Made by a program: the position numbers and the translations under genes. Below the pieces are notes generated by a model. That model did no database searches. It had not been told where the DNA came from and saw only the letters and a program-made list of their open reading frames with translations. 64,000 nt of DNA from an uncultured bacterium. GTDB lineage: Bacteria > Patescibacteriota > Minisyncoccia > Moranbacterales > GWC2-37-73. Positions 24,066-52,490 of the stretch are shown piece after piece (the stretch's first letter is position 1; each line of letters begins with the position of its first letter). The DNA lies in contig CAISKQ010000060.1 of assembly GCA_903885965.1 (NCBI GenBank), positions 21,220-85,219 on the forward strand, in the 5' to 3' direction.

Positions 24066-24156
24066 GTGTCATACTGAACTTGTTTCAGTATCTACTCACT
24101 TTATTTCAGTCAGTTTGGTGCGTTAGAGATCCTGAAACAAGTTCAGGATGACATTT
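24066..24156. repeat. Paired palindromic hairpins (REP/BIME-like family), locus A.
   Basis: gtcATACTGAActtgtTTCAGTATc and gATCCTGAAacaagTTCAGGATgac, 45 bp apart. Confidence 0.7.
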
Positions 24157-24267
24157 GATGATAGTATAGATTTAGTTAAATTAGTATAAGTTATCGCGCA
24201 CTCGGAAACAAAACAATAATACACTGAAATAGATTATTTACTTCACTAGCTAATTACTACTAAAAAT

Positions 24268-25599
24268 ATGATCAATCTAACACATAAAATGACGCTTCAA
24301 AAGAAATGGAAAAGAATTTACATAGTCTCAAGGATTTTTTTGTATTTATTTTTTCTATTGGCGGCCCTTTTCGTTGGCTACCAGATATTGTTTCCTGAGA
24401 TATCACTGGACTATTCCTTCGGTAACGCAAATTCGCTTAAAAATACATTGGTTTCAATGCGAACAACCACTCAAAATCCTGCTAAAAACGGATCAATCAA
24501 AGCCAGTGACATTCTCTCCTTTAATGCTAACCCTATTGGAAATTTCAAGGATGCCAAATTAAGCTTCGTGCTGTCCAATGATTCAAAAACACCAGAAAAA
24601 GCAACCGTTAAAGCTCGTAAATCCTACAGCGCCTTCTTCTACCCAGAGGGAGCACCACTTGGCTTTGCCAATGGCTCCCTCCTGAGCATCAATGGAACTT
24701 ATTACATAATTTCTGGAGGAAAAACACGTCAATTTGTTTCCGGAGCAGCCCTTGATCAACTCGGATATTCTAGGACATCTTTTTTAAGAGTCTCCCAAGA
24801 AGACCTTAAATTAAATCCTCCTGGTGACAATATTTTAAATGCAACAAGTTATCCCGACGATACACTCATTGTCGTTGGCAATCAATATTATCAATTTGAA
24901 AATCAGCAACTCATCCCTTTTATTAATGACAAAGCCTTTCTTTCTAGGTATGATTCAACTCAAGCGATTCCAAAAAACGAAGACTTTCTGAGTGGCAGAA
25001 GTGTTTCAGAAAATTTTATCGGTTTTGTTGATGGAACACTTGCCTCCTCTGATCAGTCAGTTTTCATCCTTAGTCAGGGTAACAGCTATCCAATTGCTGA
25101 CGCTGCAACGTTTGTAGCTATGGGGTTTGACTGGAATAATGTCCTCCCGCTAACTCCTGCGGAAATAAACGTCTACAAGAGGCAAAAACAATTCACAGTC
25201 GATCAGCCCCATCCAATCGGAACTATTTTTTATGACAAAAATAAAAATAAATATTTTATGATTAGCGATGGACTGAAACATCCAATCGAAAATGAAGCTG
25301 TCGCCAAGACATATACCAAGGTTTCTCCAGTATTAATTGACTCTCAAAGCATTACAAAAAATGTCTCTTGCAAATTAGAAACGGCTCCACTGACCTTTCA
25401 CACCATCGCTTGCCAGTTCAACTTAAATGACATTTATGGCTTTCCTGGCAATGATTACCAATTTGATGTAACTTTCGGAAACGATGTTAAAGTAGTATCA
25501 ACTAATGTGACATTTTATACTCAATTGACTCAATCAAATACCCTAACATCCCTTTCTATTATTAAAAATCGTCTCCAAAACAATTATGTCCAAAACTAA
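24268..25599 (+). CDS. Hypothetical membrane-anchored or secreted protein.
   Basis: N-terminal TM (IFLYLFFLLAALFVGYQIL); ORF only. Confidence 0.45.
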   Translation: MINLTHKMTLQKKWKRIYIVSRIFLYLFFLLAALFVGYQILFPEISLDYSFGNANSLKNTLVSMRTTTQNPAKNGSIKASDILSFNANPIGNFKDAKLSFVLSNDSKTPEKATVKARKSYSAFFYPEGAPLGFANGSLLSINGTYYIISGGKTRQFVSGAALDQLGYSRTSFLRVSQEDLKLNPPGDNILNATSYPDDTLIVVGNQYYQFENQQLIPFINDKAFLSRYDSTQAIPKNEDFLSGRSVSENFIGFVDGTLASSDQSVFILSQGNSYPIADAATFVAMGFDWNNVLPLTPAEINVYKRQKQFTVDQPHPIGTIFYDKNKNKYFMISDGLKHPIENEAVAKTYTKVSPVLIDSQSITKNVSCKLETAPLTFHTIACQFNLNDIYGFPGNDYQFDVTFGNDVKVVSTNVTFYTQLTQSNTLTSLSIIKNRLQNNYVQN

Positions 25600-26032
25600 C
25601 CATCATCCAAACCTGTTTTACCGGCTGACAAAGTCCACAAAAAAAATTATCTCGAGTAGAAATTTTTTAACCTTGATATATAAACTCCTGCACGATTCGC
25701 TGTTTATACTGCTTTTCTCATTCACTATGATTTTAATCGCGGAAGGATTGCTTCCAGGAATCGCAACAGCTCATTTGAGCCTAGCAAAATTGGCAATCAT
25801 TGTAATTGCCACACTCATAGGAATTGTTCTAATCGGAAAGAAATTAGATTTAACTTACGCCAAAACTAGATTGAATAAAAGTAAGCTCCTGCCAATCTTA
25901 ATCACTGTCTCATTCCTACTGATTGGAAATTCCCTCTTGCGTTTTGCATTCTGGGAAAACATCATTATTACAGTTCTTACCCTTTTTGTTTTTATTCTTT
26001 TTTATCATCTACTATTCTTAGAAAGAAAGTAA
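25586..26032 (+). CDS. Small membrane protein.
   Basis: Four hydrophobic segments; ORF only. Confidence 0.4.
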   Translation: MSKTNHHPNLFYRLTKSTKKIISSRNFLTLIYKLLHDSLFILLFSFTMILIAEGLLPGIATAHLSLAKLAIIVIATLIGIVLIGKKLDLTYAKTRLNKSKLLPILITVSFLLIGNSLLRFAFWENIIITVLTLFVFILFYHLLFLERK

Positions 26033-26045
26033 CCATGGGGCAACC

Positions 26046-27164
26046 TTATATTTCTCTTATAAAATTCAGCGTTTCTTGCGCGCATTTTTTCCAGGAAAAT
26101 TTGCTGGCCTGATTCAATCCAGCTTGAATCATTTGTTGAGTCAATATCTTATCACCTAATACACTCTCGATGCATTGTGCTAGCTGATTACTGCTGCCGC
26201 CGTCAAAATAGCGTGCAGCGCAACTTCCTACTTCAGGAAGACTCGAATTTTTTGCCAAGATAGCAGGAACCCCGCAAGCCATCGCCTCTAGTGCAGGAAT
26301 ACCGAATCCTTCATATAAAGTTGGAAAAACAAAGATTGATGCGCTTCGATATAAAATTGGCAATTGAGCAAAAGGAACCCTGCCAGTAACAATGATATCG
26401 CCAGCAAAAGCGCTGGTCTTTATTCTTTGCAAGGTTTCTTGAAAATTCCAAGCAGGGGCGCCGGCAAACACTAATTTCATCTCAGGATAGCTTGCTTTTA
26501 TTTTTTCAAAAGCCTCAATCAGCACAATTAAATTTTTGCGCGGTTGAATAGCCCCAACATACAAAAGATAGTTTTTAGCTTTTAGCTTATAGCTTTTTAA
26601 GATTTTTTCCGATTGACTATCAGAAAAATTCTGGTTAAAAAGTTGGGAGTCAAAACCGTGATGGATAACTCTAATATTTTCCGCTTTAACAGTTGGATAA
26701 AACTTCAAGATGTCATTTTTGGTCGCTTGAGAAATAGCAATTATACCATCGGCGTTCAAAACCGCATAATCACTAAGACTATTAAGCTTGGCTAATTCTT
26801 TCTCTGGAAAATACTCCGGAAAAATCTTGAAAGCCAGATCATGGATAGTCACGACAACCTTAAGTGTCTTTCGTCGAAATTTGGGAATATTATGCACCGG
26901 CATCCAAAGCACCTGCGGTTTATCACAGAAAACTTGCCAAGCAAAACGAGTTTGTGTCCAAAATCGTGGAAAAGGGATTTTTTTGAAAAAATAATTTGAA
27001 AAATTTGGTGGAGTCAAATGCGGATTAAAAGCACCCCTATGATATATATCAAAAGAATCCTGCTGATCAAGGTTCCCAAAATTTTTCAGCATATTTAAGA
27101 TATATACCCTTGTACCATCAATACGCTCATGGTCAAGATCTGCGGCGTGAATTGCAATTTTCAT
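26046..27164 (-). CDS. GT4 family glycosyltransferase.
   Basis: FPTLYEGFGIPALEAMACGVPAILAKNSSLPEV (E-x7-E). Confidence 0.8.
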   Translation of the reverse strand: MKIAIHAADLDHERIDGTRVYILNMLKNFGNLDQQDSFDIYHRGAFNPHLTPPNFSNYFFKKIPFPRFWTQTRFAWQVFCDKPQVLWMPVHNIPKFRRKTLKVVVTIHDLAFKIFPEYFPEKELAKLNSLSDYAVLNADGIIAISQATKNDILKFYPTVKAENIRVIHHGFDSQLFNQNFSDSQSEKILKSYKLKAKNYLLYVGAIQPRKNLIVLIEAFEKIKASYPEMKLVFAGAPAWNFQETLQRIKTSAFAGDIIVTGRVPFAQLPILYRSASIFVFPTLYEGFGIPALEAMACGVPAILAKNSSLPEVGSCAARYFDGGSSNQLAQCIESVLGDKILTQQMIQAGLNQASKFSWKKCAQETLNFIREI

Positions 27165-27195
27165 AAACCTACGAAATTACAAAATTAAATACCTG

Positions 27196-27240
27196 CCCGC
27201 TTCGCTACGCGAAGCTTTGCAGGCGGGCAAAAATACAAAA
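27196..27240 (-). terminator. GC-rich nested hairpin followed by a T-rich tract; rho-independent terminator of the pseudouridine synthase gene.
   Basis: TGCCCGCCTGC...TTCGCGtagCGAAG...GGGCAGG then TATTTAATTTT on the minus strand. Confidence 0.5.
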
Positions 27241-27293
27241 ATTTCGTGTTCCGTATTTACTAAAAAGCTAAGAAGCTAAAGCTTAAAAAGCTA

Positions 27294-28046
27294 TTATATC
27301 CCTAAGCTTTCCAATAAAGTCTTCACTTCATCTTCTCCAAGTGCTCGCAATTGACCGATTCGAAGCCTGCCAAGATTGACATTCATAATTCTAATTCTTT
27401 TCAAATCAACCACTTCCCAACCAAGTGCTGTGGTCATACGCCGAATCTGATGCTTTTTTCCCTCTGTCAAGGTAATATGAAAAGTAAGCTCATCTTTTTT
27501 CTCAACAATTGCAGGGCGAGTTTTAAAATCTTCAAGCTGTACCCCTTGGCGCATAACTTTCAAAAAAATATTTGTTATTGGCTTATTCACGCTAACTACG
27601 TATTCTTTTTCATGCTCCCTGTCCGGGTTAAGTAATTTATCCGTAATACGTCCATCATTGCTGAGGATAATAAGACCACGCGAATTTTTGTCCAATCTGC
27701 CAACCGGGAAAACATCATCGGCAACTTTAACCACGTTAGCAATACTTTTTTGCCCATCTTTCGGTGAGTGCGTCACAATTCCGCGTGCTTTATGATAAGC
27801 ATAATAAACATATTTTTTCAATACGCCTTTTTCTTTCACATTAAGCTCAACTTTATCTTTCTCGAAAACCTTATCACCAATTTTAGCTTTTTTTCCATTA
27901 ACAACCACCAAGCCTTTGGTGATATATTCATCTGCTTCTCGCCTACTGCAATAATTGTTAAGTGCGAGATAACGATTAATTCTAATCGGATAGACTATTT
28001 TTTCTTCCATAATTTCATTCATTAAAAACTTATTCTGCCAAGTCAA
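27294..28046 (-). CDS. rRNA pseudouridine synthase, RsuA/RluB family (S4 domain plus PseudoU_synth_2).
   Basis: VFPVGRLDKNSRGLIILSNDG and HQIRRM motifs. Confidence 0.8.
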   Translation of the reverse strand: MTWQNKFLMNEIMEEKIVYPIRINRYLALNNYCSRREADEYITKGLVVVNGKKAKIGDKVFEKDKVELNVKEKGVLKKYVYYAYHKARGIVTHSPKDGQKSIANVVKVADDVFPVGRLDKNSRGLIILSNDGRITDKLLNPDREHEKEYVVSVNKPITNIFLKVMRQGVQLEDFKTRPAIVEKKDELTFHITLTEGKKHQIRRMTTALGWEVVDLKRIRIMNVNLGRLRIGQLRALGEDEVKTLLESLGI

Positions 28047-37917: not shown

Positions 37918-38006
37918 ATAAATATATTACTTTTTAATCATCTGATGTAACAAAAGATATATCTAATTATACACACACCACTTTTTTTGTCAAGCCATTA
38001 TGTCAA

Positions 38007-38036
38007 ATCTTAGCTAATTTGAGCCCTTTTGGCAAG
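38007..38036. repeat. Direct repeat copy 2 of the porB 3' end sequence.
   Basis: tcttagctaatttgagcccttttggcaagcat. Confidence 0.85.
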
Positions 38037-39635: not shown

Positions 39636-39657
39636 ATGCAGTATGAAATTATTTATT

Positions 39658-40566
39658 TTAGCTAATTTGAGCCCTTTTGGCAAGCTTTTCGAAATTTTCA
39701 TTAACCGTCTTTTGAATTTCTTTAATCACCTCAAGATTTTTTTCTTTAAAGAGATGTTTAAAGCGTCCTTGGGTTTTCAGGAATTCTTCAATCGGCTTTG
39801 GCTCCTTCACAATATTATTGATGATATATTTTCCATCTTCTATTTCAAAAAGCGGCCAAAAATTAGTTTCAGTGGCAAGTTTTCCAATTGCAACATACTC
39901 CGAAGTTGGAAATTTCCAAATTTGCGTGCAAGGTTGCAAAACCAACAAAAAGGATGGACCTGGAGTGTTTAAAGCTTTTTGAGCTTTGCGTTTCAGGTCT
40001 GGCAGATAAGCAACATTAGCTTGGGCCAAATATTTGATCCCATGGGCTTTGACAATTTCCATCAAATCTTTGCGTTGCTGAGTTTTGCCAAATGACTGAC
40101 TGCCAACTGGAGCCGTTTCAGTGTTGGCGCCATATGGGGTTGCGCCACTACGCTGTCCTCCAGTGTTCATGTAGCCTTCATTGTCATAGCAAACATACAA
40201 AAAATCATGTCCGCGTTCGAGAGCACCAGAAAGCGCTTGCAGGCCAATGTCATAAGTTCCACCGTCGCCACCAAAAGCGATTATCTTGGCAGGATTTTTT
40301 AACTTTCCGGATTTTTCCAAAGCTTTTTGCGCCGCATCAATCCCGGCCGCGGTGGCTGCCGCATTGCCAAAAACACTGTGAATATATGGCACTTTCCAAG
40401 AAGTTGATGGATAAATCGTTGTTGTCACTTCAAGACAACCAGTTGCGTTTGAAACAATCACTTGCTCATCGGTTGCCCCCAGCACAGTCCGCACAATCGC
40501 CGGAATTCCACAACCCGCGCAAGTAGCATGACCAGAAGAGAATTTTTTGGTAAGATCTTTATTCAT
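39658..40566 (-). CDS. porB: Pyruvate/2-oxoacid:ferredoxin oxidoreductase beta subunit (TPP-binding).
   Basis: GHATCAGCGIPAI (Cys ligand region), GGDGGTYDIGLQALSGA (TPP-binding GDG). Confidence 0.85.
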   Translation of the reverse strand: MNKDLTKKFSSGHATCAGCGIPAIVRTVLGATDEQVIVSNATGCLEVTTTIYPSTSWKVPYIHSVFGNAAATAAGIDAAQKALEKSGKLKNPAKIIAFGGDGGTYDIGLQALSGALERGHDFLYVCYDNEGYMNTGGQRSGATPYGANTETAPVGSQSFGKTQQRKDLMEIVKAHGIKYLAQANVAYLPDLKRKAQKALNTPGPSFLLVLQPCTQIWKFPTSEYVAIGKLATETNFWPLFEIEDGKYIINNIVKEPKPIEEFLKTQGRFKHLFKEKNLEVIKEIQKTVNENFEKLAKRAQIS

Positions 40567-40626
40567 ATATAATACGGATTAGAACGAATTAATTACGGAT
40601 CGTCACAGATCACAAATTCACACAGA

Positions 40627-41055
40627 TTATAGATTTAATTTTAGTTTAGATATGAATGGTTTTCTATCATTTGTGCAAATAGATCTTTTTATTTCTAATT
40701 CTTGAGTACAAAAATTAACCAAATAACCAATTTCATATTTACTAGCTTTTAAATAAGATCTTTGCTGATTAATATCATCGACTCTCGTGAAGCTAGTCGC
40801 TTTAATTTCTACTATTATTTTATCTTCCACCAAAATATCTGGGACATATGTGCCTAATTTTTTTCCTGTTTCCAATGAATAAATATCGATTCTTTTTTGA
40901 CTTTCAAATTTTAAATTCTCTTTTTCCAATTCTTCTTCTAGGGCTTTTTGATAAATAATTTCTTTTAATCCCTTTCCGTATTTATTTGCAACATTATAAA
41001 AACATCCTCGCACTTTGTATGATAATTCTTTTTCCAATAGACCATCCTCGCTCAT
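40627..41055 (-). CDS. GxxExxY protein (TIGR04256 family, PD-(D/E)xK-like) inserted inside the por operon.
   Basis: GKGLKEIIYQKALEEELE (GxxExxY), then D...EIK (VEDKIIVEIKA). Confidence 0.7.
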   Translation of the reverse strand: MSEDGLLEKELSYKVRGCFYNVANKYGKGLKEIIYQKALEEELEKENLKFESQKRIDIYSLETGKKLGTYVPDILVEDKIIVEIKATSFTRVDDINQQRSYLKASKYEIGYLVNFCTQELEIKRSICTNDRKPFISKLKLNL

Positions 41056-41109
41056 AAAATATGAATCCGTGATTCGTGAACATTCGTCACAAATTCGTGA
41101 AGATCCGTT

Positions 41110-42279
41110 TTACACTAGGTATTTAACCTTATTATCAATCTCCCCATCTTCTAAATCCTTGAATACTTTTTCAATGTCCTTTTGCATCGTGTCGCGACCG
41201 CCGAGACCGTAAACATAACTGGCAAGGTCTGGCTTGCGACTTGAGCTGTGATAAAGGCTGCTCACAATATCTTGATAGAGCGGAGGATATGCCCCGAAGG
41301 AAATTGCGCGATCCAAAACAGCAATTTTTGGAATGTGGGACAAAACTGCACCAATTTCTGCGTATGGAAAAGGCCTAAACATCTTCACGCTAAGCAGGCC
41401 GACTTTTTTCCCACTCATGCGAAGTGCATCGACAACATCCTTGGCTGTCCCACCAGTGGCACCCATGATCACAATCACGCTCGTCGCATCTTGCAAATGA
41501 TATTGCTCGAACATTTCATATTTTCTGCCTGAAATTTTGAAAAATTCTCCGCAAATTTTTTTGTAAGCAAGCTTAGCTTTTTGCATCACTTTTTCTTGAT
41601 CAAGCTTGAATTCAAAAAAAGTGTTTTGCAGCGCCAGGGTTCCAAAAGTTGTCGGATTCTCAAAATCAGTCAGCGATTGCTGCACTTTCCTCTCGCCCAC
41701 AAACTCTTTCACAACTTGATCATCCAAAATTTCAATTCTTTCGGTAGTGTGGGAAGTGTGAAAGCCATCCATGATTGGCATCACAGGAGCGCCAATTTCC
41801 TCAGCAAGCTTAATCGCAATAATTGTGTCATCATAAGCGTCCTGCACCTGCTCGGCAAAAATCTGCACCCAACCCAAATCTCGCACCGCCATCACGTCGC
41901 CATGTTCGCCGTGGATGTTCAGCGGTGCGCTGAGCGCTCGAGAGCTGACGCTCATCACGATTGGCAAGCCCAGCCCGCTGACCACCGGCAATGTTTCAGC
42001 CATGTATAAGATTCCTTGTGAACTTGAAGCGGTTACGGCCCGCGCTCCTGCAGCAGACGCGCCAATTGTTGCGCTCATTGCACTATGCTCAGATTCCACC
42101 TGCACAATCTCAGCCTCAACCAGACCGTCAGCTTTCATTTTCGCATAAGTTTCAATAATAGTGGTTTGGGGAGTGATTGGATAAACCGCCATCACATCCG
42201 GTCGAATTTGCCTCCAGGCTTCAGCAACCGCATAGCCGCCAGTCAATGCTTTAATATTTTTGTTTTTCTTATTAGACAT
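41110..42279 (-). CDS. porA: Pyruvate:ferredoxin oxidoreductase alpha subunit.
   Basis: LTGGYAVAEAWRQIRPDVMAVYPITPQT; about 390 aa, typical PorA. Confidence 0.85.
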   Translation of the reverse strand: MSNKKNKNIKALTGGYAVAEAWRQIRPDVMAVYPITPQTTIIETYAKMKADGLVEAEIVQVESEHSAMSATIGASAAGARAVTASSSQGILYMAETLPVVSGLGLPIVMSVSSRALSAPLNIHGEHGDVMAVRDLGWVQIFAEQVQDAYDDTIIAIKLAEEIGAPVMPIMDGFHTSHTTERIEILDDQVVKEFVGERKVQQSLTDFENPTTFGTLALQNTFFEFKLDQEKVMQKAKLAYKKICGEFFKISGRKYEMFEQYHLQDATSVIVIMGATGGTAKDVVDALRMSGKKVGLLSVKMFRPFPYAEIGAVLSHIPKIAVLDRAISFGAYPPLYQDIVSSLYHSSSRKPDLASYVYGLGGRDTMQKDIEKVFKDLEDGEIDNKVKYLV

Positions 42280-42283
42280 AATA

Positions 42284-42613
42284 TTATTTTTTCATAATTA
42301 TCGCTTTCACTGGACAGACTTGTGCGCAAACTCCGCAACCCTTGCAATATTCATAATCAATCACTGCTAAGTCTTTTTCTTTTGCAAATTTGCCACTAAT
42401 TTCAACTTCTGCCTCACTACGCTTTCGCATTTCCATAACAGCCTCAGGACAATGTGGCACACAAGTGCTGCATCCGATGCACTTTGAAGCATCTACTTCG
42501 GGCTTCATATAGCGCCAATCTCCTGTTTTTGGCGCCTTAGTTTGGTCATGATTTATAATTGCTCCTTTTTCCATATTGGTACTAATTTTCACGAATTTAT
42601 GACTGATTTTCAC
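42284..42613 (-). CDS. porD: Pyruvate:ferredoxin oxidoreductase delta subunit (2x[4Fe-4S] ferredoxin).
   Basis: CIGCSTCVPHCP and CKGCGVCAQVCP. Confidence 0.8.
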   Translation of the reverse strand: MKISHKFVKISTNMEKGAIINHDQTKAPKTGDWRYMKPEVDASKCIGCSTCVPHCPEAVMEMRKRSEAEVEISGKFAKEKDLAVIDYEYCKGCGVCAQVCPVKAIIMKK

Positions 42614-42675
42614 GGAGCACGGATATCCGTGATATGTGTCAATCCGTAATCAATCCGTTTCTATCCGTTAAGTTT

Positions 42676-43248
42676 TTAGAGTTCATCAAACCCAGCCTCC
42701 ATTGCCTGAATATTTTTTTCTGTCAATTCCTTGCCTATTTTTTCCAAAAATACACCGCGAAAAACTTCCGCTGCACTTTCCAGAGAAACAACCTCAGTAA
42801 TCTTAATCAATTGTCCAACTAAAACCATATTTGGATTTGAGCTCCCGGTTGTTTGACTTGCCAGCCCATTTGCATCAATCGCATAAATTTTTCCCTTGAA
42901 ATGTGGCACGTCTTTTCTGATTTCCTCACTATCCCTTTTTGAATTTATAATCAAAACTTCGTGCCGATCAAGATTTTTTGCAACATCCTGACTTCCAATA
43001 ACAGTTTCGTCCATAATCACAACCGCGTCAGGATCCGTGACTGGCTCTTGCGTTCGAAGCGGCTTGTCAGAAATGCGCAAAAACATCTTAGTAGGAGCGC
43101 CTGACCTTTCTGGACCAAAAAAAGGAAAAGCTTTCACAAATTTTCCTTCATTGACAGCCGCATGCGCCACGAGTTCAGAAGCAGTCTTAGCTCCTTGTCC
43201 CCCACGGGCAAAAAAGATTATTTCAAATGTATCTTTGTTTAGTTTCAT
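42676..43248 (-). CDS. porG: Pyruvate:ferredoxin oxidoreductase gamma subunit.
   Basis: IIFFARGGQGAKTASELVAHAA, typical PorG N-terminus. Confidence 0.8.
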   Translation of the reverse strand: MKLNKDTFEIIFFARGGQGAKTASELVAHAAVNEGKFVKAFPFFGPERSGAPTKMFLRISDKPLRTQEPVTDPDAVVIMDETVIGSQDVAKNLDRHEVLIINSKRDSEEIRKDVPHFKGKIYAIDANGLASQTTGSSNPNMVLVGQLIKITEVVSLESAAEVFRGVFLEKIGKELTEKNIQAMEAGFDEL

Positions 43249-43334
43249 TTTTGTTTTTCTGAAGCTTTATCGTTTTAACTCTTTTCATTTTAGCATATTT
43301 TACTAAATCTGACACACTGCCAATTCTGAACCCT

Positions 43335-44297
43335 CTAGATATTCATTAACATCTGCTGCTTGAGCAATTTATAGGCGCTATCCATGTGCTTTTCTGTCAT
43401 AGTCCTACCATCATCAAGATTACTGTGATAAACAGTCATAAGTTTAGTATAATCAGCTGAGATGAGAATTATTTTTTTGCTCAGAGTCATAATATTAAGG
43501 ATCGGAAAACCAAGTCTTAAAAATTTCTCCTCGGAAATACAAACGGCCTTTCCATTCCCAACACAGTCCACAACAATTATTTTCTTAGCCTTTTGCATTA
43601 TTTTAAGATATTGTTTTTCGAAAACCCTAAAGCCTTGACCCCAATAAACTGGATAATCAAATGACAATTCTTCAGCTGCGGAAAATACCAACAACACATC
43701 TTCTAATAATATTTTTTCTTTTATGGCAATTTTCAAAATCAGAGCAACTCCAGATGCATTGTCTATCGCACCCATATTAATACTATCATAATGAGCAAAG
43801 CAAATAACCTTTGGATTCTTTCTATTGCCTACTAAAATATTAACCGCGCTGTGCTTTATCTTTTCAACTTTCACCTCTCCTTGAATTTTCTTCCCATTTA
43901 AAACTTTCTGCAAGCCGTCATGACCTAGAGCTATCGCTGGTGCAAAATAATGATTGCCAACTGAAACACCCTCACACATTGGATTGAAATTAATATTTTC
44001 CTTATCAATGAAATGTGCGGATGGAATCAAGGAACTTAGGATATTTTCTTTTCCTATAATTTTTCCACCCACAAAACTACAACCTTGAATGTCTTCCAAT
44101 TGTACTCCGTCTACTTTCAAATATGCCTTGTTTATTCTGGGAATGTTTAGTGAAAATTTTTGGTCAAAATACAACAAACCATTAGCTTCAAGGATTTCTT
44201 TTAGGACATCTTTAGTCCTCTTTTCACCTTCCAGCTGTCTCGGAGAACAATTTATAATCTTATTTATACAGTAAAAATAATTAAATGTATTTTTCAT
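43335..44297 (-). CDS. M28 family metallopeptidase.
   Basis: FAHYDSINMGAIDNASG, SAAEEL (metal ligands H, D, D, EE). Confidence 0.6.
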   Translation of the reverse strand: MKNTFNYFYCINKIINCSPRQLEGEKRTKDVLKEILEANGLLYFDQKFSLNIPRINKAYLKVDGVQLEDIQGCSFVGGKIIGKENILSSLIPSAHFIDKENINFNPMCEGVSVGNHYFAPAIALGHDGLQKVLNGKKIQGEVKVEKIKHSAVNILVGNRKNPKVICFAHYDSINMGAIDNASGVALILKIAIKEKILLEDVLLVFSAAEELSFDYPVYWGQGFRVFEKQYLKIMQKAKKIIVVDCVGNGKAVCISEEKFLRLGFPILNIMTLSKKIILISADYTKLMTVYHSNLDDGRTMTEKHMDSAYKLLKQQMLMNI

Positions 44298-44374
44298 AAG
44301 TTTTAGTGATATTTTTTAAAAGTATAACACTCTATTTAGCATTATCCGCTAAATAGAGTGTTAAATGCAAGAAA

Positions 44375-45424
44375 CTATGCTAAAGAGATAAGCTGTTGCG
44401 CTATATGCTCCGTCACATCATACAAGGCGTTGCTTGTATTTTTCCCTGACAATGAGATTCTCCTTGCCCAGTTCCTATCTTCAATAGCCCAATTTGGAAA
44501 CTCATTAAGCTTGGATGAAAAATCCTCCACCTGAACCCTGAGCGGAGTATCAATTAGCAATGGCTCGAATCCACAAATCTCCTTTATCTTTTTTATGTTT
44601 GTAGAAAACCAGGCTATGACTTTTGGATCTTCATCAACTGTTGAAGCTAAGGCATGCGAACCATCCAAAAATAACAACAGATACAAAAAATAGTACCAAT
44701 CAGCCTGTGGCCTCGGATCCTGCAAATCAGATGAAAAGTCAGCCTCCCATGAATTTACTTTTCTATCCTTAAGTCCGGATCTCACGAAAACATGTTTTGG
44801 CATATTTCTGCTCCTGCTAATCACCGATTGACTTGCAAGTTCCCTCAGTAAAGATGAACAATCAACAAGATGATCATTTTCACCAAAACTTTTTCTACGC
44901 ATAGCATAATGAAAATCAACAAGCTTCATTCCATCGCAAGTTTCCAATATATCTAGGACTTTTCCATCAATGTCAACTCTCTGATGTCCAGCTAGAATAT
45001 GTTCCTTATTTATGAAGAGTCGCTTATTTTTTTGCGACCTAAATAGATATGGAATTTTAATCAAGGATGCCTTGTATTCGTTGCTTGAAACATAAGAATC
45101 CCTGGTAAACGCCATCGACATAGCCCTCGTATTAAGCCCATTTATCGATAAAAAATCAGCTAAAAGATTAATCGCAAAATGCTCTATATTCTGACATGGC
45201 ACCTGTCTTGCCAAACACAAAGTGAAAAAATTTCTGCCACTAAAATATTTATCAGCAATTGCAAAAAAATTCTCAATTCCATACTCACTAAAGCAGAAAT
45301 CATTAACCAAATTTCTTATTTTGGTTTTTTCTTTCCTTCGTGCTTCAATCTCGTCAAATAATTGCCTAGTATTCATGCTAAACATCCTTTTTTGATTTAA
45401 GTTGCTGGAAATTCCCATTGTCAA
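44375..45424 (-). CDS. Hypothetical protein.
   Basis: ORF only; Arg/Cys content somewhat atypical for the window. Confidence 0.4.
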   Translation of the reverse strand: MTMGISSNLNQKRMFSMNTRQLFDEIEARRKEKTKIRNLVNDFCFSEYGIENFFAIADKYFSGRNFFTLCLARQVPCQNIEHFAINLLADFLSINGLNTRAMSMAFTRDSYVSSNEYKASLIKIPYLFRSQKNKRLFINKEHILAGHQRVDIDGKVLDILETCDGMKLVDFHYAMRRKSFGENDHLVDCSSLLRELASQSVISRSRNMPKHVFVRSGLKDRKVNSWEADFSSDLQDPRPQADWYYFLYLLLFLDGSHALASTVDEDPKVIAWFSTNIKKIKEICGFEPLLIDTPLRVQVEDFSSKLNEFPNWAIEDRNWARRISLSGKNTSNALYDVTEHIAQQLISLA

Positions 45425-45469
45425 AAGATTTTAAAAGAACGATGTTTTCAAGAGAAACAAAAAACCGAC

Positions 45470-45500
45470 CAGCTAAGGTCGGCTTCTTATTGCGAATTCT
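45470..45500 (-). terminator. Rho-independent terminator.
   Basis: CCGACC-TTAGCT-GGTCGG followed by TTTTTTGTTT on the minus strand. Confidence 0.55.
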
Positions 45501-45738
45501 GATTTAGCTCGAGAGCCTTTCACACCTCGCAAAAACAAACCGGCCTTGGAAGTCGGTAAACCAAAAAAAGAGAAATGATAAAGATTTTTGAAATTGTTTT
45601 TGCATAATATTAAACTAATGATAACAAACTAAACATTGTTGTCAATAGTGATATGCAGACCTACATATATCACAATGTAATTTTAAACAAAAAAACATTC
45701 TGCACCTTTAACTATCCTGCATTTGCAATCAAAGACAA

Positions 45739-45768
45739 CAAAAAATGAGACCAGAGGTCTCATTTTTT
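45739..45768. terminator. Bidirectional rho-independent terminator downstream of the DsbA-like gene.
   Basis: AAAAATGAGACC-AGA-GGTCTCATTTTTTTT. Confidence 0.65.
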
Positions 45769-45798
45769 TTGCTAAACTTTTCTAAAAAGTTGAAAAAA

Positions 45799-46995
45799 CT
45801 ATTTGCTAAGTTGGTCATCTAAAACTTTTTTCACGTCATCATAAGTAGCTGCTGGTGTTTGCAAATCAGCTCCGACAAACATTGCAGGAGTTGCCTGAAT
45901 ACCAAAATCTTGACCATCTTTTTGCGAAGCAGCTATTTGATCCTTGAATTGCTTTGAATCAAAACATTTGCCAAATTCAGCCGCATTAAGTCCAAGACTT
46001 GCAGCGTAACCTTTGAAAGTTGAGCTACCATCTTTAAGCTTGCCCCAAGCATCTTGAGTTGCAAAAAGTTTATCAGCATATGCTAAGAATTTTCCTTGTG
46101 CGTTAGCACACTCTCCAGCCATTGCAGCCTGTGCTCCCTGAGCTGAAGATGCTGGGAAATAATTCTTAAACACAAACTGAATCTTATCACCATAGTCCTT
46201 AATCATTGGCGCAACAATTCCTTGATAGAATTTCTTGTCATCTGGATTCTGGAAATAATCAAATGACACAACTTTTACTTTTGCATCATCGCTGCCAATT
46301 TTAATATCCTTATCAGAGATTGTTGGGGCTACAAGATATTTCCCAACTGGAAAACCAGCCTCAGCCGATTTAATAGCATATGCATCTCCTTGTTGGTCTA
46401 AAAATGGCTCCGCCTTTGCAAATAATTCTGTCTTTTCTACCTCTTTAGAGAAGATAAAAGCTGGAATTGTTTTAAGTTTAAATTGAGCAACTAATTTTTT
46501 TCCCTCGGCTGAATTTACGTCAATTTTTTCAGTTAGCATGGTTGGAAGTGCACCTTTTAAGCCAACCAACACTTCGTCTGGCTTGCAAGCATCTCCACAC
46601 GCTTCATCGCTAACAACTTTAATTGTCACCATAGGCTCAGTATAAGCCACCCAAGTCTTGCCACTTGATTGGAAAACATCGGTGCTATTAAGAGCTTTCT
46701 GAGAAAAACCTCCGCCGCGTGCCAACTGAATCACATCAACAAACAAACTACCAACAAACAAACCTGTCAGCAAAATCACCATTGAAATCAGATTTTTGAT
46801 TTTGTGATTTTTTTCATCAATTGAATCAATCAAAACTTCTTCCACTGATTGATCGGGGTCAACAAAAATTTCTTCTTCATGTTTGCTGAGTTCTTCTTTC
46901 AAAATTTCAGCCTCCCTAATTTCTTTTTCATCCATATTTTTAATTTTAGGTATTAGCTTCTCAGGCATTAGCTTTTTAGGCAATGCATTCATCAA
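45799..46995 (-). CDS. Membrane-anchored DsbA-family thiol-disulfide oxidoreductase.
   Basis: N-terminal TM; AAMAGECANAQGKFLAYADKLFATQDAW resembles the DsbA/BdbD helical-insert region; ACGDAC Cys pair. Confidence 0.55.
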   Translation of the reverse strand: MMNALPKKLMPEKLIPKIKNMDEKEIREAEILKEELSKHEEEIFVDPDQSVEEVLIDSIDEKNHKIKNLISMVILLTGLFVGSLFVDVIQLARGGGFSQKALNSTDVFQSSGKTWVAYTEPMVTIKVVSDEACGDACKPDEVLVGLKGALPTMLTEKIDVNSAEGKKLVAQFKLKTIPAFIFSKEVEKTELFAKAEPFLDQQGDAYAIKSAEAGFPVGKYLVAPTISDKDIKIGSDDAKVKVVSFDYFQNPDDKKFYQGIVAPMIKDYGDKIQFVFKNYFPASSAQGAQAAMAGECANAQGKFLAYADKLFATQDAWGKLKDGSSTFKGYAASLGLNAAEFGKCFDSKQFKDQIAASQKDGQDFGIQATPAMFVGADLQTPAATYDDVKKVLDDQLSK

Positions 46996-47090
46996 AACTT
47001 AAACCTATTTAAAAAAATTATTTATTCGATTTATTATTAAAAAAAATAAATTCTTAACAAATCCAAACTAAAAAGCTAAAGCCTAAAAAG

Positions 47091-47591
47091 CTAGTTTTGT
47101 TGCTGATTACTATCCTGCACCGCTTGTTGTTTTTGAGCTGCATTTTGCACAGTCTGTTGCTGAGCTGCTTGCCGCAAAAGATTACTCTTGAGTTCGGCAA
47201 TATTGTAGCGCTGCACTTTAGCAGGAATCTGATAGTCATTAAAACCAATCGTGATTTTTTTCACCGCTTCAGTTTTGACTGTGATGCCGATTAGGATTCC
47301 AAGAATAAAAAACAAAGAGAGTTCAAAAACCAAATCTTTCTTTTTCTTCTTTGCTAAATCTTGTTGACTTTGAAATTTTTCAACTTTTATTTCAACCTGT
47401 CGAACTTCTTCAGTTTTTTCTTTTTCATTTTCAGTCTCAAAAATCATTTCAAAAGACTCCTGTTCTTCAGATGACTCTTGATTGTATTCTTTTTCCAATT
47501 CAAATTCCATTTTTTCCAATTGCTCTTCCCTTTTTTTATCCAAGTGCATAGGCCTATTTTTATTGGTTAATTTACATCCATAGCTTACCAC
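47091..47591 (-). CDS. Hypothetical single-TM protein with an acidic N-terminus and a Gln-rich C-terminus.
   Basis: ORF only. Confidence 0.4.
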   Translation of the reverse strand: MVSYGCKLTNKNRPMHLDKKREEQLEKMEFELEKEYNQESSEEQESFEMIFETENEKEKTEEVRQVEIKVEKFQSQQDLAKKKKKDLVFELSLFFILGILIGITVKTEAVKKITIGFNDYQIPAKVQRYNIAELKSNLLRQAAQQQTVQNAAQKQQAVQDSNQQQN

Positions 47592-47764
47592 AACCCCATG
47601 AAACCTACAACTTGCGCAGTTTTTTGATTTATTGTCTAATAAATTTACCCCTTTCCCCTAATTCTACCAATAAGAAAAACCTACGAATCCACAAATCAGC
47701 TACAAATCTACAAATAGAAAAAATTACATTTATAACAATATAACCATATAACAATTTTGTATTT

Positions 47765-49024
47765 TTATTCCTTCCTTAGTGCCTCCATCGGCGAAAGCTG
47801 GGAAGCCTTGTAGGCAGGATAAAAGCCAAAGATAATTCCGGTTGCCATGGAAAAACCAGTGGCAAGGGCAATTGAACCAAAAGTGACTGGGAAGTTAATG
47901 TTAAAACCGAAAAAGCTACTAATAAAATACGAAGCACCGAAAGAAATAAGATAGCCAAAAATAATTCCAACAACCCCACCAATCAAAGTAATAAAAACCG
48001 CCTCCAACAAAAATTGATTACGAATATCAGCCGCAGTTGCGCCAACGGCCTTACGAAGTCCAATTTCAAAAGTTCGCTCCACTACTGCCACATACATCAC
48101 ATTCATGATTCCGACTCCGCCGACGACCAGTGAAATTGATGTTAAGGCCAAAAGTAAAATATTAATCGTTCCAAAAACATCTCCAATAATTTTTTGTGCT
48201 TCTTGAATAGTTGAAACCGAAAAATCCTCTTGATCGGACTTATATGTTTTATGTTGACGCTTAAGCACATCAGCAACATCAGCTGCTGTAACATCAATCA
48301 AATTCGCATCTTTCACTTTCAGTGTAATCATTCGCACATAATCAATACCTAAAATTTTCTTTTGAAGCGTTTGCACTGGCATATATATCAACTCATCATA
48401 ATTGAAAAATGTCACGGCTCCTCTTTTTTCAAGCACTCCAATAACTCGAAAGTTCAAACCTTTAACTTTAATTGTTTTGCCAACCGCATCGTCACTACCA
48501 AACAATGTGTCCTTAACATCACTGCCAATCACGACGACTTGAGACAAACCATTATCATCTCCTTGGGAATAAAAAGTTCCTTGCGCAATTTTTGTAGCAC
48601 TATCAATGAATGGATAATCAGCGCCAGCCCCAAAAATCATTACTTGTTTATTTTGATCTTGATAGCTTGCCAACCCTTGTCCGATGTTCACCGGAGCAAA
48701 CTTATCAACATTAGGAATTTTTTTGATTGCCTCTCCATCAGCGATTTTCAATGTTGTAATTTGGATTCCCTGTGCTTGCCCCGTGGCATTAGCAGAAGAT
48801 GTTTTGCCGGTTGCTGGGACTTTTGTCTCAACCTGAATAATATCATTTCCAAAGCTCCCAATTTGCCCCAGGATATATTCCTTCACGCCTTGGCCACTTG
48901 AAGTCACTACAATAACCGACAAAATTCCAATCACAATTCCCACCAATGTCAAAACTGTCCGACCCTTATTGATGGTCAGACTCCGTGAGGCTAATTTAAT
49001 TGGCAAAAATAATTGCTTAAACAT
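47765..49024 (-). CDS. MacB/FtsX-type ABC transporter permease.
   Basis: N-terminal TM, large periplasmic domain, 3 C-terminal TM helices (MacB_PCD-like). Confidence 0.75.
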   Translation of the reverse strand: MFKQLFLPIKLASRSLTINKGRTVLTLVGIVIGILSVIVVTSSGQGVKEYILGQIGSFGNDIIQVETKVPATGKTSSANATGQAQGIQITTLKIADGEAIKKIPNVDKFAPVNIGQGLASYQDQNKQVMIFGAGADYPFIDSATKIAQGTFYSQGDDNGLSQVVVIGSDVKDTLFGSDDAVGKTIKVKGLNFRVIGVLEKRGAVTFFNYDELIYMPVQTLQKKILGIDYVRMITLKVKDANLIDVTAADVADVLKRQHKTYKSDQEDFSVSTIQEAQKIIGDVFGTINILLLALTSISLVVGGVGIMNVMYVAVVERTFEIGLRKAVGATAADIRNQFLLEAVFITLIGGVVGIIFGYLISFGASYFISSFFGFNINFPVTFGSIALATGFSMATGIIFGFYPAYKASQLSPMEALRKE

Positions 49025-49070
49025 AACTCAAATAAAAAATGTAAATCTTAAAAACCTAAAGCCTGAAAAA

Positions 49071-50312
49071 CTATTCGTACCGTAGCGCTTCCATTGGTGA
49101 AATTCGCGAAGCCTTGCGGGCAGGATAAAGACCAAACAAAATCCCAATCAAAATTGAAACGGATGTGGCAATTCCAACAGAGCTAGGTGAAATAATAAAA
49201 TCCCAGCTATACCCTAATGCATTAATAATAACGGATGCCAGTAGCGAAATCAGAATTCCAAAAATAATTCCAATAATTCCGCCCAGCAAGGTTAGAAAAA
49301 TCGATTCTATTAGGAACTGCAAAATGATATGCCGCGACCTAGCGCCAACCGCTTTGCGCAATCCAATTTCGCGAATGCGCTGATTAACTGAAATGAGCAT
49401 AATATTCATAATCCCAATTCCTCCAACCAAAAGCGAAATCGCAGCGATTCCAGTCAAAAAATATTTCAAAACATTGGTTATGTTAGTGATAGTTGCAATT
49501 GCTTGAGCGGTGTTTCGAACAGAAAAATCATCATCAACTTTATTTTTAATTCTATGCTGAATTCGCAATGCATATTCAACATCAACAGTAGCCCTGTCCA
49601 TATTGTCAGCAGAATCAACTTTGATTCGCATAAAGTTAACATGATCTATTCCAAGCAAAATTTTCTGCGCAGTTTCAAGTGGTATGTAAGTCAAATTATC
49701 CGTGTTTGTTATTCCACTTGCTCCTCTTTTTTCAAAAAGACCAATCACTGTAAAATTCGTGTCCTTAAGAGAGAAAACTTTTCCAATTGGATCATCACTA
49801 CCGAAAAGCAACGTTGCTTGGTCTGGACCCAAGACTGCCACCCGGGCAAGTCCAGCCTCTTCTTCTTTCGTAAAGAATCTGCCTGATTTAAGTGTAACAC
49901 TTTCCACATCCGGGAAGCTTGCTGAAACACCTTGAAAACTTGCTTCATTTGAATTGTTTTTATACTTTGCCGCCGCAATTCCGCTAACATAGGCGCAACC
50001 ATTGATTGCGCTTGGTACATTCTTTTTTTGAAGAATTGCTTGCAGGTCAGCTTCTTTCAATGTTGTAACCACGATTCCAAGTGCCGAAGCTGGCGGCCCT
50101 TTACTGTCAGATGCTCCCGGAAGGACACCAATCAAATTAGAACCAATCCCGGAAACCTGATTCAAAATAAGTTGCTGAGCACTAGCACCAATTGCCATCA
50201 CAATGATAACTGAAGCAATTCCAATAATAATTCCCAAAATCGTCAAAAAACTGCGGAACTTTGCCGCCATCAAGTTGGTATAAGAAATTTTTATTGGAGA
50301 ACTTAATTTCAT
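49071..50312 (-). CDS. MacB/FtsX-type ABC transporter permease (second copy).
   Basis: Same architecture as 47765..49024. Confidence 0.75.
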   Translation of the reverse strand: MKLSSPIKISYTNLMAAKFRSFLTILGIIIGIASVIIVMAIGASAQQLILNQVSGIGSNLIGVLPGASDSKGPPASALGIVVTTLKEADLQAILQKKNVPSAINGCAYVSGIAAAKYKNNSNEASFQGVSASFPDVESVTLKSGRFFTKEEEAGLARVAVLGPDQATLLFGSDDPIGKVFSLKDTNFTVIGLFEKRGASGITNTDNLTYIPLETAQKILLGIDHVNFMRIKVDSADNMDRATVDVEYALRIQHRIKNKVDDDFSVRNTAQAIATITNITNVLKYFLTGIAAISLLVGGIGIMNIMLISVNQRIREIGLRKAVGARSRHIILQFLIESIFLTLLGGIIGIIFGILISLLASVIINALGYSWDFIISPSSVGIATSVSILIGILFGLYPARKASRISPMEALRYE

Positions 50313-50324
50313 GAAAATTTAAAA

Positions 50325-51068
50325 TTATTTCAACAGTGTTCCTTCTCCATCGGCAATCAAACGATCCTTGACAAGCTCATCAGAAACGATTTGCCCATCT
50401 TTCATGTTCAAGATCCGCTTAGCATGCCGAGCTGTATAAGTTTCATGCGTCACCAAAATTACAGTGTGCCCAGCGTCATTGAGTTTTTGCAAAATCTTCA
50501 TCACAGCCAAACCTGATTTTGAATCCAAATTTCCAGTTGGCTCATCGGCAAAAATAATTTCTGGATTATTTACCAGCGCTCGCGCAATTGCCACTCGCTG
50601 TTTTTCTCCGCCAGAGAGCTGATTGGAAAGATAATCCGTGCGATGACTCATGCCAACTGCATCTAAGGCTTTAGTAATTTTTTCCTTATTGCTTATTTCC
50701 AAATGATCCTCATCATACAAAAGCGGTAGCTCCGTGTTCTCATAAACAGAAGTCCTAGGCAAAAGATTGAAAGACTGAAAAACAAAACCAATTTTCTTGT
50801 TACGAATTTTTGCCAACTCGTCATCGGAATATTGAGTGATATTTTTACCTTCCAATAAATAAATTCCTTCAGTCGGACGATCAAGCATGCCCAAGATTTG
50901 CATCAAAGTTGATTTTCCAGAGCCAGACGGACCCATGATTGAAATAAACTCACCTTTTTGAATTTCAAAACTCACATCAAAAAGCACTGGAGTTTTCACT
51001 CCTTCAGTTTCATAGGTCTTGCTTAAATTTTGAACAGAAATTAAAGGCATATTATTTTGTCGCCACAA
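50325..51068 (-). CDS. ABC transporter ATP-binding protein (MacB/LolD-like).
   Basis: GPSGSGKSTLMQIL, LSGGEKQRVAIARAL, IIFADEPTGNLD. Confidence 0.85.
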   Translation of the reverse strand: MWRQNNMPLISVQNLSKTYETEGVKTPVLFDVSFEIQKGEFISIMGPSGSGKSTLMQILGMLDRPTEGIYLLEGKNITQYSDDELAKIRNKKIGFVFQSFNLLPRTSVYENTELPLLYDEDHLEISNKEKITKALDAVGMSHRTDYLSNQLSGGEKQRVAIARALVNNPEIIFADEPTGNLDSKSGLAVMKILQKLNDAGHTVILVTHETYTARHAKRILNMKDGQIVSDELVKDRLIADGEGTLLK

Positions 51069-52368
51069 ACGTCACCACCCTTTCACCACCCTTGAGTCCT
51101 GATTTTATTTCGACCATACCATCATCACCTTCCAATCCTGTTTCAACTTTGACAGTTTTCACAGTATTATCAACTTGCAAAATATCCACTGTCTTTCCAT
51201 TGTTTGAATCAGTCTTGATTGCGCGAACAGGAATGCTAAGCACGTCATTTTTTTCTGCAGTTTTAATATCAATATTTGCACTCATGCCTGGTTTGATCCG
51301 AACATCAATGTTATTTAGCTTTAATTTTATTTGATAATAAACAACATCTTGAATTGTGGTCGAAGCCGGGTCAATTTCAATCACCTCTCCATCATAAATA
51401 TCCTCCGAAGTCAAAGAATCGAAAGTTATTTTTGAATGTTGACCAAGTTTTAATTTCACGATGTCAGATTCTGGGACTTTTGATTCAATAATCATATCCA
51501 AAGACATTACCCGAGAAAAAGTTTCCTTGATAACTCCAGTTCCCAAAATTTCACCAGGCTTATTATTAACCTCAGTGATAATTCCATTAACAGGAGAGAC
51601 CAGCGTTGCCTTTGCAAGATTAAGCGCAGCTTGATCATAAGTTGCTCTTGCGCCGGCCACGGCTGCGTTTCTCGAGGCTTTTGCAAAATCAGATTCAACT
51701 GTTTTAACTTTTGCGCTAGCACTATCAATTGTGTTTTGAGCATTTACTTTCGAAAGATCAGACTGTTCTTGTACCGTTTTTAAAGATTCCTTAGCTGAAT
51801 TTAAACTATTTTCAGCTGCGGTCAGGGTTGGTTTTGTTTGAAGCTTTATTGCACCATCGCTCAAGCTGTCATAATATGCTGACATATCATCATAATATTT
51901 TTGCGCATTATCAACCGCTTTTCTCGCAGCTGAAATGTTTTGATCATTCAGGGATTTTGTCTGACTAAGGGTATCCTCAGCGTTACTTTTTGCAACTTTC
52001 GCCTCCCGCAGAGTGTCACTATTAGAACCAGCATTGGCAATTGCTTGATCAAGACCAGCTTGAGCCTGGGCCATCTGTTTTTGAAGTGTCGCATCAGTTA
52101 GGGTTGCAATTTTGTCCCCTGCGGCAACCTTATCACTGGTTTTGACAAAAACATTGCTCACCCTGCCGCCTAGTTCAAAATTGAGAGTAATTTCATCTTT
52201 TGCAACTAAGTCGCCAGTAACTGAAACTGTTTGTGCCAGTGTTCCCTTAACCACATCCGCAGCTGTATAGGTAGTCACTGTTTTTTTGCTTTTAAAATAA
52301 AAAACAATTCCGCCAACGATAACGACAGAGATCACAATCCAAATTATCCATTTTTTTGCTTTTTTCAT
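51052..52368 (-). CDS. Efflux periplasmic adaptor subunit (HlyD/MacA family).
   Basis: N-terminal TM, long coiled-coil, C-terminal beta-barrel domains. Confidence 0.75.
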   Translation of the reverse strand: MKKAKKWIIWIVISVVIVGGIVFYFKSKKTVTTYTAADVVKGTLAQTVSVTGDLVAKDEITLNFELGGRVSNVFVKTSDKVAAGDKIATLTDATLQKQMAQAQAGLDQAIANAGSNSDTLREAKVAKSNAEDTLSQTKSLNDQNISAARKAVDNAQKYYDDMSAYYDSLSDGAIKLQTKPTLTAAENSLNSAKESLKTVQEQSDLSKVNAQNTIDSASAKVKTVESDFAKASRNAAVAGARATYDQAALNLAKATLVSPVNGIITEVNNKPGEILGTGVIKETFSRVMSLDMIIESKVPESDIVKLKLGQHSKITFDSLTSEDIYDGEVIEIDPASTTIQDVVYYQIKLKLNNIDVRIKPGMSANIDIKTAEKNDVLSIPVRAIKTDSNNGKTVDILQVDNTVKTVKVETGLEGDDGMVEIKSGLKGGERVVTFVATK

Positions 52369-52377
52369 ATTTGTTTC

Positions 52378-52490
52378 AAACTTTTGTCATACTGAACCTG
52401 CCTGCCCGCCTTTGGAGGGTTTCAGCATCTACTTCCTTTGCATAAGATAACTTCCTGCATGCAAGATCCTGAACTAAATTCAGGATGACA
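52378..52490. repeat. Paired palindromic hairpins (REP/BIME-like), locus C. The first hairpin carries a GC-rich 20-nt loop insert.
   Basis: gtcATACTGAAcctgcctgcccgcctttggagggTTTCAGCATc and gATCCTGAActaaaTTCAGGATgac. Confidence 0.65.

Follow-up and report, generated by a model that had tools for sequence, protein, structure and literature searches.

Paired hairpins in a Moranbacterales scaffold

The 64-kb stretch of DNA analysed here (the window; positions 21,220 to 85,219 of contig CAISKQ010000060.1, assembly GCA_903885965.1, from an uncultured bacterium of the Moranbacterales, Patescibacteria) has a G+C content of ~37% and contains four intergenic loci at which two short hairpins face each other. 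These elements, referred to as A to D, span 87-106 bp each, with limits set from TGTCAT on the left to ATGACA on the right, and resemble the doublets formed by repetitive extragenic palindromic (REP) sequences. The repeated unit is a 24-nt hairpin comprising a (T)GTC tag, an arm of the form AT-N-CTGAA, a 5-nt loop, the returning arm TTCAG-N-AT and a C-tail. The original prediction had listed four loci with hairpin pairs, and all of them were recovered: the exact pattern TTCAGNATGAC matches eight times in the window, as four inward-facing pairs, compared to 0.21 +/- 0.48 matches in dinucleotide shuffles, and none of 100 shuffles reached eight. Furthermore, a covariance model trained exclusively on 122 units from other genomes finds seven of the eight units (32-47 bits, E-values of 4e-6 to 7e-10) and no further significant copy across the window. 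The eighth, which is the left unit of element D and carries a loop insertion, was caught by pattern matching and not by the covariance model.

Each element combines two types of unit. The R-type has an ATRCTGAA arm, ATACTGAA or ATGCTGAA, followed by a tail of the form ATCT(A/G)CT..CTTT, and the arm of the C-type reads ATCCTGAA. The TGTC tag is present in 8/8 units, and the stem (ATNCTGAA / TTCAGNAT) is perfectly paired in six of the eight, with one G.T pair and one A.C mismatch in the remaining two. G/C pairs make up 3/8 of the stem in the C-type and in the G-variant of the R-type, and 2/8 in the A-variant. The loop comprises 5 nt in seven units (CTTGT, CTCGT, CTTTT, TTTAT and TTTAG), and the tails read CTA, CTG, CTC, CCT and CTT. 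After removal of a 19-nt insertion from element D, a gap-free alignment of the four elements spans 89 columns; identity between copies is 85-90% in the arms and 48% in the spacer, which has a constant length of 35 nt. Beyond the doublets, no sequence is common to all four flanks (a match at 18/22 positions is confined to the right-hand flanks of A and B), and no direct repeat that would indicate a target-site duplication flanks any of the four copies.

When folded as single-stranded RNA or DNA, a complete element forms one long, imperfect hairpin in which the left arm pairs with the right arm (minimum free energy structure). RNA folding energies of A and C are -32 to -39 kcal/mol with z-scores of about -6 to -8.4 (-7.6 and -8.4 for element A), while B and D fold more weakly (z-scores of -2.5 to -3.4); single units have DNA hairpin energies of -5 to -6.7 kcal/mol. 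However, position 3 of the stem is A or G in one arm and C in the other in every element of the window, which leaves two mismatches in the long hairpin. Despite this difference, each small hairpin has its own complementary base. The long hairpin is therefore not the constrained structure, and the contrast between arms and spacer, together with the self-complementarity of the units, identifies the tagged 24-nt hairpin as the conserved functional unit. It is presumably also the object that is recognised.

All four elements are located between co-directional genes, at 24-48 nt past the upstream gene or tRNA-like gene and 16-114 nt ahead of the next start codon, and their orientation relative to transcription is 2:2. 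Their location within runs of co-directional genes makes co-transcription with the neighbours probable. Element A (24067..24153, + strand) is a head-head heterodimer with an R-type unit on the left (24068-24091, GTCAT-ACTGAA-cttgt-TTCAGT-AT) and a C-type unit on the right (24129-24152, reverse strand); an inverted-repeat search returned its outer arms as 27 nt with 93% complementarity. It lies 36 nt past the stop codon of a 599-aa glycosyltransferase-like gene and 114 nt ahead of the start of a 443-aa gene. Element B (29691..29777, - strand) is the reversed heterodimer, opposite in orientation to A, C and D, with the C-type unit at 29692-29715 (+) and the R-type unit, which contains the G.T pair, at 29753-29776 (-). 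It is found 30 nt past a tRNA-like gene (29808-29883, - strand) and 77 nt ahead of the start (29613) of a gene encoding a 527-aa NUDIX/IPP-isomerase-like protein. Element C (32938..33024, + strand; R-type 32939-32962 (+), C-type 33000-33023 (-)) separates prfB, whose stop codon (33073) lies 48 nt away, from ftsE. Element D (52385..52490, + strand; R-type 52386-52428 (+), C-type 52466-52489 (-)) is positioned 24 nt past the stop codon (52515) of an RNase H gene and 16 nt ahead of the start (52368) of a MacA-like adaptor gene. The loop of its R-type unit is enlarged to 24 nt by the 19-nt GC-rich insertion (~52398-52420), and the stem of the same unit contains the A.C mismatch. No second copy of the loop insert was identified in the window. 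Loops of REP units are a recurrent insertion point for small G+C-rich hairpins in several phyla (stretches L010, L020, L098, L102 and L116).

The conserved ftsE start codon (32908..32910, - strand; protein start MLKFENV..., with ATGTTAARNTTTGAAAATGT kept in the related contigs L123, L126 and L128) lies 27 nt beyond element C, so that the element is intercistronic and does not overlap ftsE. The ATG at 32943, inside the hairpin of element C, stems from the CATG of a tag and belongs to an over-extended open reading frame (ORF) with 11 spurious residues; in agreement with this, the match to the FtsE profile sets in at residue 12 of this ORF. Several details of the original prediction need revision. 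The hairpin assigned to the ftsE ATG at locus B is that of C and covers a spurious start, the true start being at 32910; the GC-rich insert described at locus C near the adaptor gene belongs to D, 30-50 nt upstream of the start at 52368; and placement between converging transcription units applies to none of the four loci. The description of the units as palindromes of the form GTCAT...ATGAC holds with respect to the two unit types, but the GTC tag is present on one side only, and the far ATGAC is that of the partner unit.

At gathering score, only two tRNAs in the window match Rfam families, and below threshold the region 29600-31300 (including element B) and three element loci from other genomes give only generic long-hairpin (miRNA-type) matches. 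The tRNA-like gene next to element B (29808-29883) was reported by ARAGORN as 'tRNA-???' with an odd anticodon loop and scores 26.1 bits with the Rfam tRNA model, below its 29-bit gathering score. Since its sequence is nearly unchanged in L123 and L124, this gene is probably functional but atypical. In addition, a G+C-richer structured stretch was identified past tRNA-Gln in the window (~30620-31055) and in two relatives (L126 ~11150-11500; L128 ~10190-10470). It contains the tRNA 3' end in an inverted copy (30956-30976 versus 31033-31053) and 'GGGATTCGAACC' modules with 2-3 recurrences in the relatives, and may represent one or more unannotated RNA genes, e.g. an intron-containing or permuted tRNA-like gene.

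Occurrence in relatives, across phyla and in viral contigs

The closest homologues of the FtsX protein encoded in the window are from Candidatus Moranbacteria or Parcubacteria, which identifies the host as a member of the Patescibacteria, and syntenic contigs were available from three related Moranbacteria lineages with FtsX identities of 78%, 76% and 73%. The 78% lineage is represented by the contigs L123, L124 and L125, and the other relatives compared are L126 and L128. At sites A, B and C, elements are confined to the window organism and missing from all three related lineages: no element was found at the site B ortholog in L123 and L124, or in the prfB-ftsE spacer (site C) of L123, L126 and L128. 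The distance between the tRNA-like gene and the start of the NUDIX gene is 157 nt in the window, with the element, versus 23 nt in L123. Conversely, L123, L124 and L125 carry one head-head heterodimer (ATTCCGGA + ATCCTGAA) at another site, downstream of tRNA-Gln, where neither the window organism nor the other two lineages have one; no pair was found on the fetched contigs of L126 and L128. The empty orthologous sites in syntenic relatives and the single pair located elsewhere show that related genomes gain and lose such elements.

A second palindromic intergenic element, with the ends ...GCTTTTTAGG / CCTAAAAAGC..., is present in the window (46954-47093), in L123 (18290-18405) and in L124 (~3640-3750). 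Its copies in the relatives occupy the spacers that hold hairpin doublets in the window (sites A and B), which makes the two spacers hot spots for more than one family of small repeats. Other intergenic features of the window include a 200-bp element with 23-nt inverted ends (GGGTCATACGCAAC...) at 53066-53266 and a separate imperfect inverted repeat at 16865-16935 containing GTCATCCTTAAG, which may be a decayed REP-like remnant. Furthermore, small genes are variably present between conserved genes, e.g. between PFOR subunit genes (window 40627-41055 and 14077-14478; L123 3993-4337). These encode PDDEXK_3, DUF559 and 23S_rRNA_IVP/bAvd-like proteins, which suggests that they are selfish or defence-related insertions.

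A scan of one genome per species (596 Gb) for GATCCTGAA-N3-8-TTCAGGATGAC yielded matches in at least 120 genome stretches, which represent no fewer than 10 phyla, compared to a chance expectation of ~5 matches by our own arithmetic from the 20 specified bases. By record title, the 120 matches listed include 21 Patescibacteria stretches from many lineages of the candidate phyla radiation (CPR), three of them Moraniibacteriota, and further comprise Alpha- and Gammaproteobacteria, Campylobacterota, Bacteroidota, Gastranaerophilales, Bacillota, Treponema, Elusimicrobiota, Chloroflexota and Dadabacteria. The pattern is also carried by 55 viral contigs and by a few plasmids or secondary replicons of Sphingomonadaceae, Treponema and Sulfurovum, and had no match in cultured phages. 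One example of a complete CPR genome with the hairpin is the 1.28-Mb Gracilibacteria contig JAXLZO010000001.1. The original prediction had regarded such elements as unexpected in a small AT-rich genome and had named only four copies with no conservation in relatives as the outcome that would refute it. The Patescibacteria matches run counter to the former, and the very wide spread of the family to the latter.

Among the matches listed, head-head pairs with a length of 56-146 bp are the most frequent arrangement of the unit, which is also found singly. At the low-GC loci that were fetched, 106 units are in head-head dimers, 32 in head-tail and 15 in tail-tail arrangement, and 104 are single. 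Units were also found within coding regions. Single units between co-directional genes at these loci show no orientation bias relative to transcription (14 same-sense versus 20 antisense). The stems of partner units often differ (GCTGAA, TCTGAA, GCCGAA, TCCGGA, CCCGGG, TCCTTG and others), without any accompanying change in the GTCAT foot, the ATC end or the loop (CTTG(T/A) or TTTAT). GTCA is invariant in the 122 units of other genomes, where the finder itself requires GTCA[T/C]. The first C of the tail is at least 90% conserved in the family alignment; in GC-rich hosts, the base before the tag is C, and a CCA tail is found mainly there. For a non-circular test of covariation, partner units were located by their tag alone. 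Since 40 of 57 such partners form 6/6 inner pairs (random chance 0.003), with ten different stem sequences, the stem covaries across phyla, with tag, AT foot and loop fixed.

Three related viral contigs (L148, L151 and L166), and also L140, L158, L161 and L173, are phage-like, have a G+C content of 56% and contain 11-17 CGTC-type hairpins per 13 kb. These fall into at least three classes, namely ATCCTGAA, ATTCCCGA with a 9-nt loop and ATTCCTGC with a 4-nt loop, and run in one direction, antisense to the terminase gene, head-to-tail and not as head-head dimers.

Assignment to the CGTC-tagged REPs and rival explanations

A superfamily of CGTC-tagged REPs, with the families CGTC-1 to CGTC-4, was defined by Di Nocera, De Gregorio and Rocco (2013, BMC Genomics 14:522; PMC3733652). 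In the passages of that paper that define the class, the tag is frequently TGTC and lies unpaired at one end, followed by an 8-9 bp stem whose first two positions carry A and T with their complements, a loop that spans 4-5 nt (always 5 nt in families 2-4, apart from members with odd loops) and a short unpaired 3-nt tail with the consensus CCA. The units are described there as mostly forming head-head dimers with the tags outside and spacers of 20-100 bp, heterodimers prevailing in CGTC-2 and CGTC-3, and as sitting between unidirectional or convergent ORFs. The same passages take Neisseria dRS3 and Rickettsia RPE-4 and RPE-6 into the superfamily, report it from five phyla (Proteobacteria, Chlorobi, Bacteroidetes, Spirochaetes and Thermotogae) and state that, unlike GTAG REPs, CGTC REPs have no associated transposase; Y1 genes are mentioned for many host species, none of them flanked by CGTC units.

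The elements of the window share with this class the unpaired (C/T)GTC tag, the 8-bp stem starting with A-T and T-A, the 5-nt loop, the head-head heterodimers (here with a 35-nt spacer), the setting between unidirectional genes, the occasional enlarged loops and the lack of a linked transposase. Because tag, stem, loop, dimer form, spacer and missing linked transposase match the definition in the text of that paper, the elements are assigned to the CGTC-tagged REP class, in a new host phylum (Patescibacteria/CPR) outside the five phyla named there. They differ from the published members in their low density, with four dimers in ~71 kb and one or none in close relatives, and in a hairpin that is near-identical in at least 10 phyla and viral contigs, as documented here. 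A peptide given in the paper for an intragenic CGTC-2 unit of Sulfurovum (RHSELVSGS; PMC3733652) back-translates to CGTCATTCNGAACTNGTNTCNGGNTC, which is essentially the hairpin of the window. We consider it likely that the four loci are head-head heterodimers of the CGTC-2 type, by stem and loop size, and represent non-autonomous selfish DNA that is copied via its hairpin. Searches of the literature for the literal sequences returned primer coincidences only, literature citing the 2013 paper added nothing on how the class is mobilised, and among the papers listed in further searches, none paired REP sequences or miniature inverted-repeat transposable elements (MITEs) with CPR.

In the original prediction, the elements were compared to the bacterial interspersed mosaic elements (BIMEs) of enterobacteria and to substrates of REP-associated tyrosine transposases (RAYTs). 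The paired, dispersed hairpins and the REP-doublet organisation are borne out, but the enterobacterial family is not, given a TGTC instead of a GTAG tag, and the link to RAYT finds no counterpart among the genes inspected. In total, ~71 kb were inspected, i.e. the window and 7 kb beyond its start, on an 86-kb metagenome scaffold (ENA ERZ18647568) from a genome estimated at ~1 Mb, and neither a Y1/RAYT gene nor any other transposase was identified. A BIME, or a REPIN as in Pseudomonas, copied by a single-copy RAYT that is encoded elsewhere in the genome would account for inverted doublets whose spacer folds into one long hairpin and for the lack of target-site duplications, as Y1 enzymes predict, and the region inspected is only a small part of the genome. 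The elements also resemble GTAG REPs in being short imperfect intergenic palindromes that are inverted in pairs of two types (cf. BIME Y and Z). Nevertheless, we regard this explanation as improbable: the tag is TGTC in all eight units, the defining text on CGTC REPs describes no Y1 gene flanked by such units (PMC3733652), and no Y1 gene adjoins the units in the fetched genome stretches and viral contigs. In contrast to RAYT-REP pairs, which diverge between species and whose GTAG REPs are lineage-specific in sequence, the window-type hairpin is common to many phyla and near-identical across them. REPIN copies are, moreover, near-identical over their full length within a genome, whereas only the arms are conserved here. 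Even less probable are classical MITEs, i.e. internally deleted DDE-type insertion sequences moved via terminal inverted repeats. The outer 27 nt could serve as such repeats, and the length of 87-106 bp as well as the presence/absence polymorphism would be in keeping with them. However, 0/4 copies have a target-site duplication, one stem position consistently distinguishes the two inverted repeats, and yet each arm is still self-complementary, units also occur singly and head-to-tail, and no parent insertion sequence was found. Transcription-factor operators or DNA-uptake sequences, to which two dyads about six helical turns apart upstream of genes might point, are hardly credible, as the dyad adjoins unrelated genes, lies inside genes and in viral contigs and across at least 10 phyla, and is missing upstream of the same genes in relatives. 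The arm loosely resembles the Neisseria uptake sequence (ATGCCGTCTGAA), which we note as a lead only; uptake sequences are lineage-specific and far denser than eight per 64 kb.

A less remote, though still unlikely, explanation is that the hairpins are RNA or DNA structures selected by the host, such as 3'-end protectors, partial terminators or processing and protein-binding sites, with mobility irrelevant or long past. The drift of the spacer to 48% identity at constant length next to arms that are 85-90% identical would fit such a role, as would the position of all four elements at 24-48 nt past an upstream gene or tRNA in co-directional strings, the G.T pair in one unit and those viral contigs in which every unit has one orientation relative to genes. 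On the other hand, the elements are missing from the orthologous spacers of relatives that share the gene order, the orientation relative to transcription is mixed both in the window and among the single units of low-GC loci elsewhere, and units lie inside coding regions too. There is also no U-tract and no match to an Rfam family, and the A.C mismatch falls on the strand where another unit has G.T, which leaves no consistent RNA strand. The host-selected and the selfish-DNA explanations are compatible, and neither excludes the other. Intrinsic terminators were rejected because the stems are A+T-rich and no T-run follows any element, and a CRISPR-like array was rejected on anatomy and distribution.

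Some observations weigh against the assignment of the elements to copied, selfish CGTC-2 REPs. The CGTC-2 type was assigned by the criteria in the text of the 2013 paper and one back-translated peptide, and not by published consensus sequences, and the tails in the window read CTN or CCT versus the CCA consensus given there. No mobilising enzyme was identified among the genes of the window or the unit neighbours examined, and a mechanism via single-stranded hairpins is proposed only from the parallel with the IS200/IS605 and RAYT-REP systems. Diverged spacers next to conserved arms are unlike recent bursts of copying, and this contrast would be explained equally well by in-situ constraint on the hairpin, through a host or RNA function, or by ascertainment. 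Finally, the insertion junctions cannot be fixed to the nucleotide, as the orthologous spacers are too diverged.

Proposed copying of the hairpin and its implications

IS200/IS605 TnpA and RAYT read a hairpin and an adjacent unpaired motif. By analogy, the elements of the window would be non-autonomous, structure-defined selfish DNA that a trans-acting enzyme copies via an intermediate in the form of a single-stranded hairpin. This enzyme might be of the HUH/Y1 type or some other nuclease or recombinase specific for hairpins, with its gene located elsewhere or introduced by a mobile element, and would recognise the tag and the foot of the hairpin. After insertion between co-directional genes, the elements would be co-transcribed and could take on secondary roles as RNA stem-loops, such as barriers to 3' decay or determinants of operon polarity; they may thus incidentally protect or punctuate mRNAs. 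The likeness to IS200/IS605 and the palindrome-associated transposable elements (PATEs) lies in recognition via subterminal hairpins with adjacent short unpaired motifs, in single-strand transposition and in the lack of target duplications. In contrast, the two end hairpins of those elements are on the same strand and not inverted, and IS200/IS605 and PATEs carry or derive from tnpA, which was not found here in ~71 kb.

All-versus-all clustering of the ORFs around units in the 120 listed stretches and the 55 viral contigs revealed no nuclease or transposase family. The clustered neighbour families have housekeeping or phage structural functions (ABC transporters, histidine kinase, Mur ligase, PGI, capsid and terminase), and the ORFs bracketed by distant head-head or tail-tail units are ordinary genes only (NusA, PGI, a phosphatase and a capsid protein). 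Because the hairpin is near-identical in at least 10 phyla, with ultra-small CPR genomes and phage- or GTA-like contigs among its carriers, and no linked transposase was seen, one could speculate that it is copied by a near-universal host enzyme of replication, repair or recombination acting on tagged single-stranded DNA hairpins, or by an undescribed trans-acting mobiliser, although we give this only a minor chance. If true, gene-poor CPR genomes that differ in their carriage of the repeat would be the easiest place to find the enzyme by exclusion.

On a practical level, REP units corrupt the annotation of start codons, as gene callers put the ftsE start within a tag. The elements also mark hypervariable intergenic sites of use for strain typing in metagenomes. 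With these findings, the CGTC-tagged REP class now reaches the Patescibacteria/CPR, whose ~1-Mb genomes are thought to be streamlined, as well as viral contigs. One hairpin allele kept across phyla, with a covarying stem and no linked transposase, sharpens the question of how CGTC REPs are copied.

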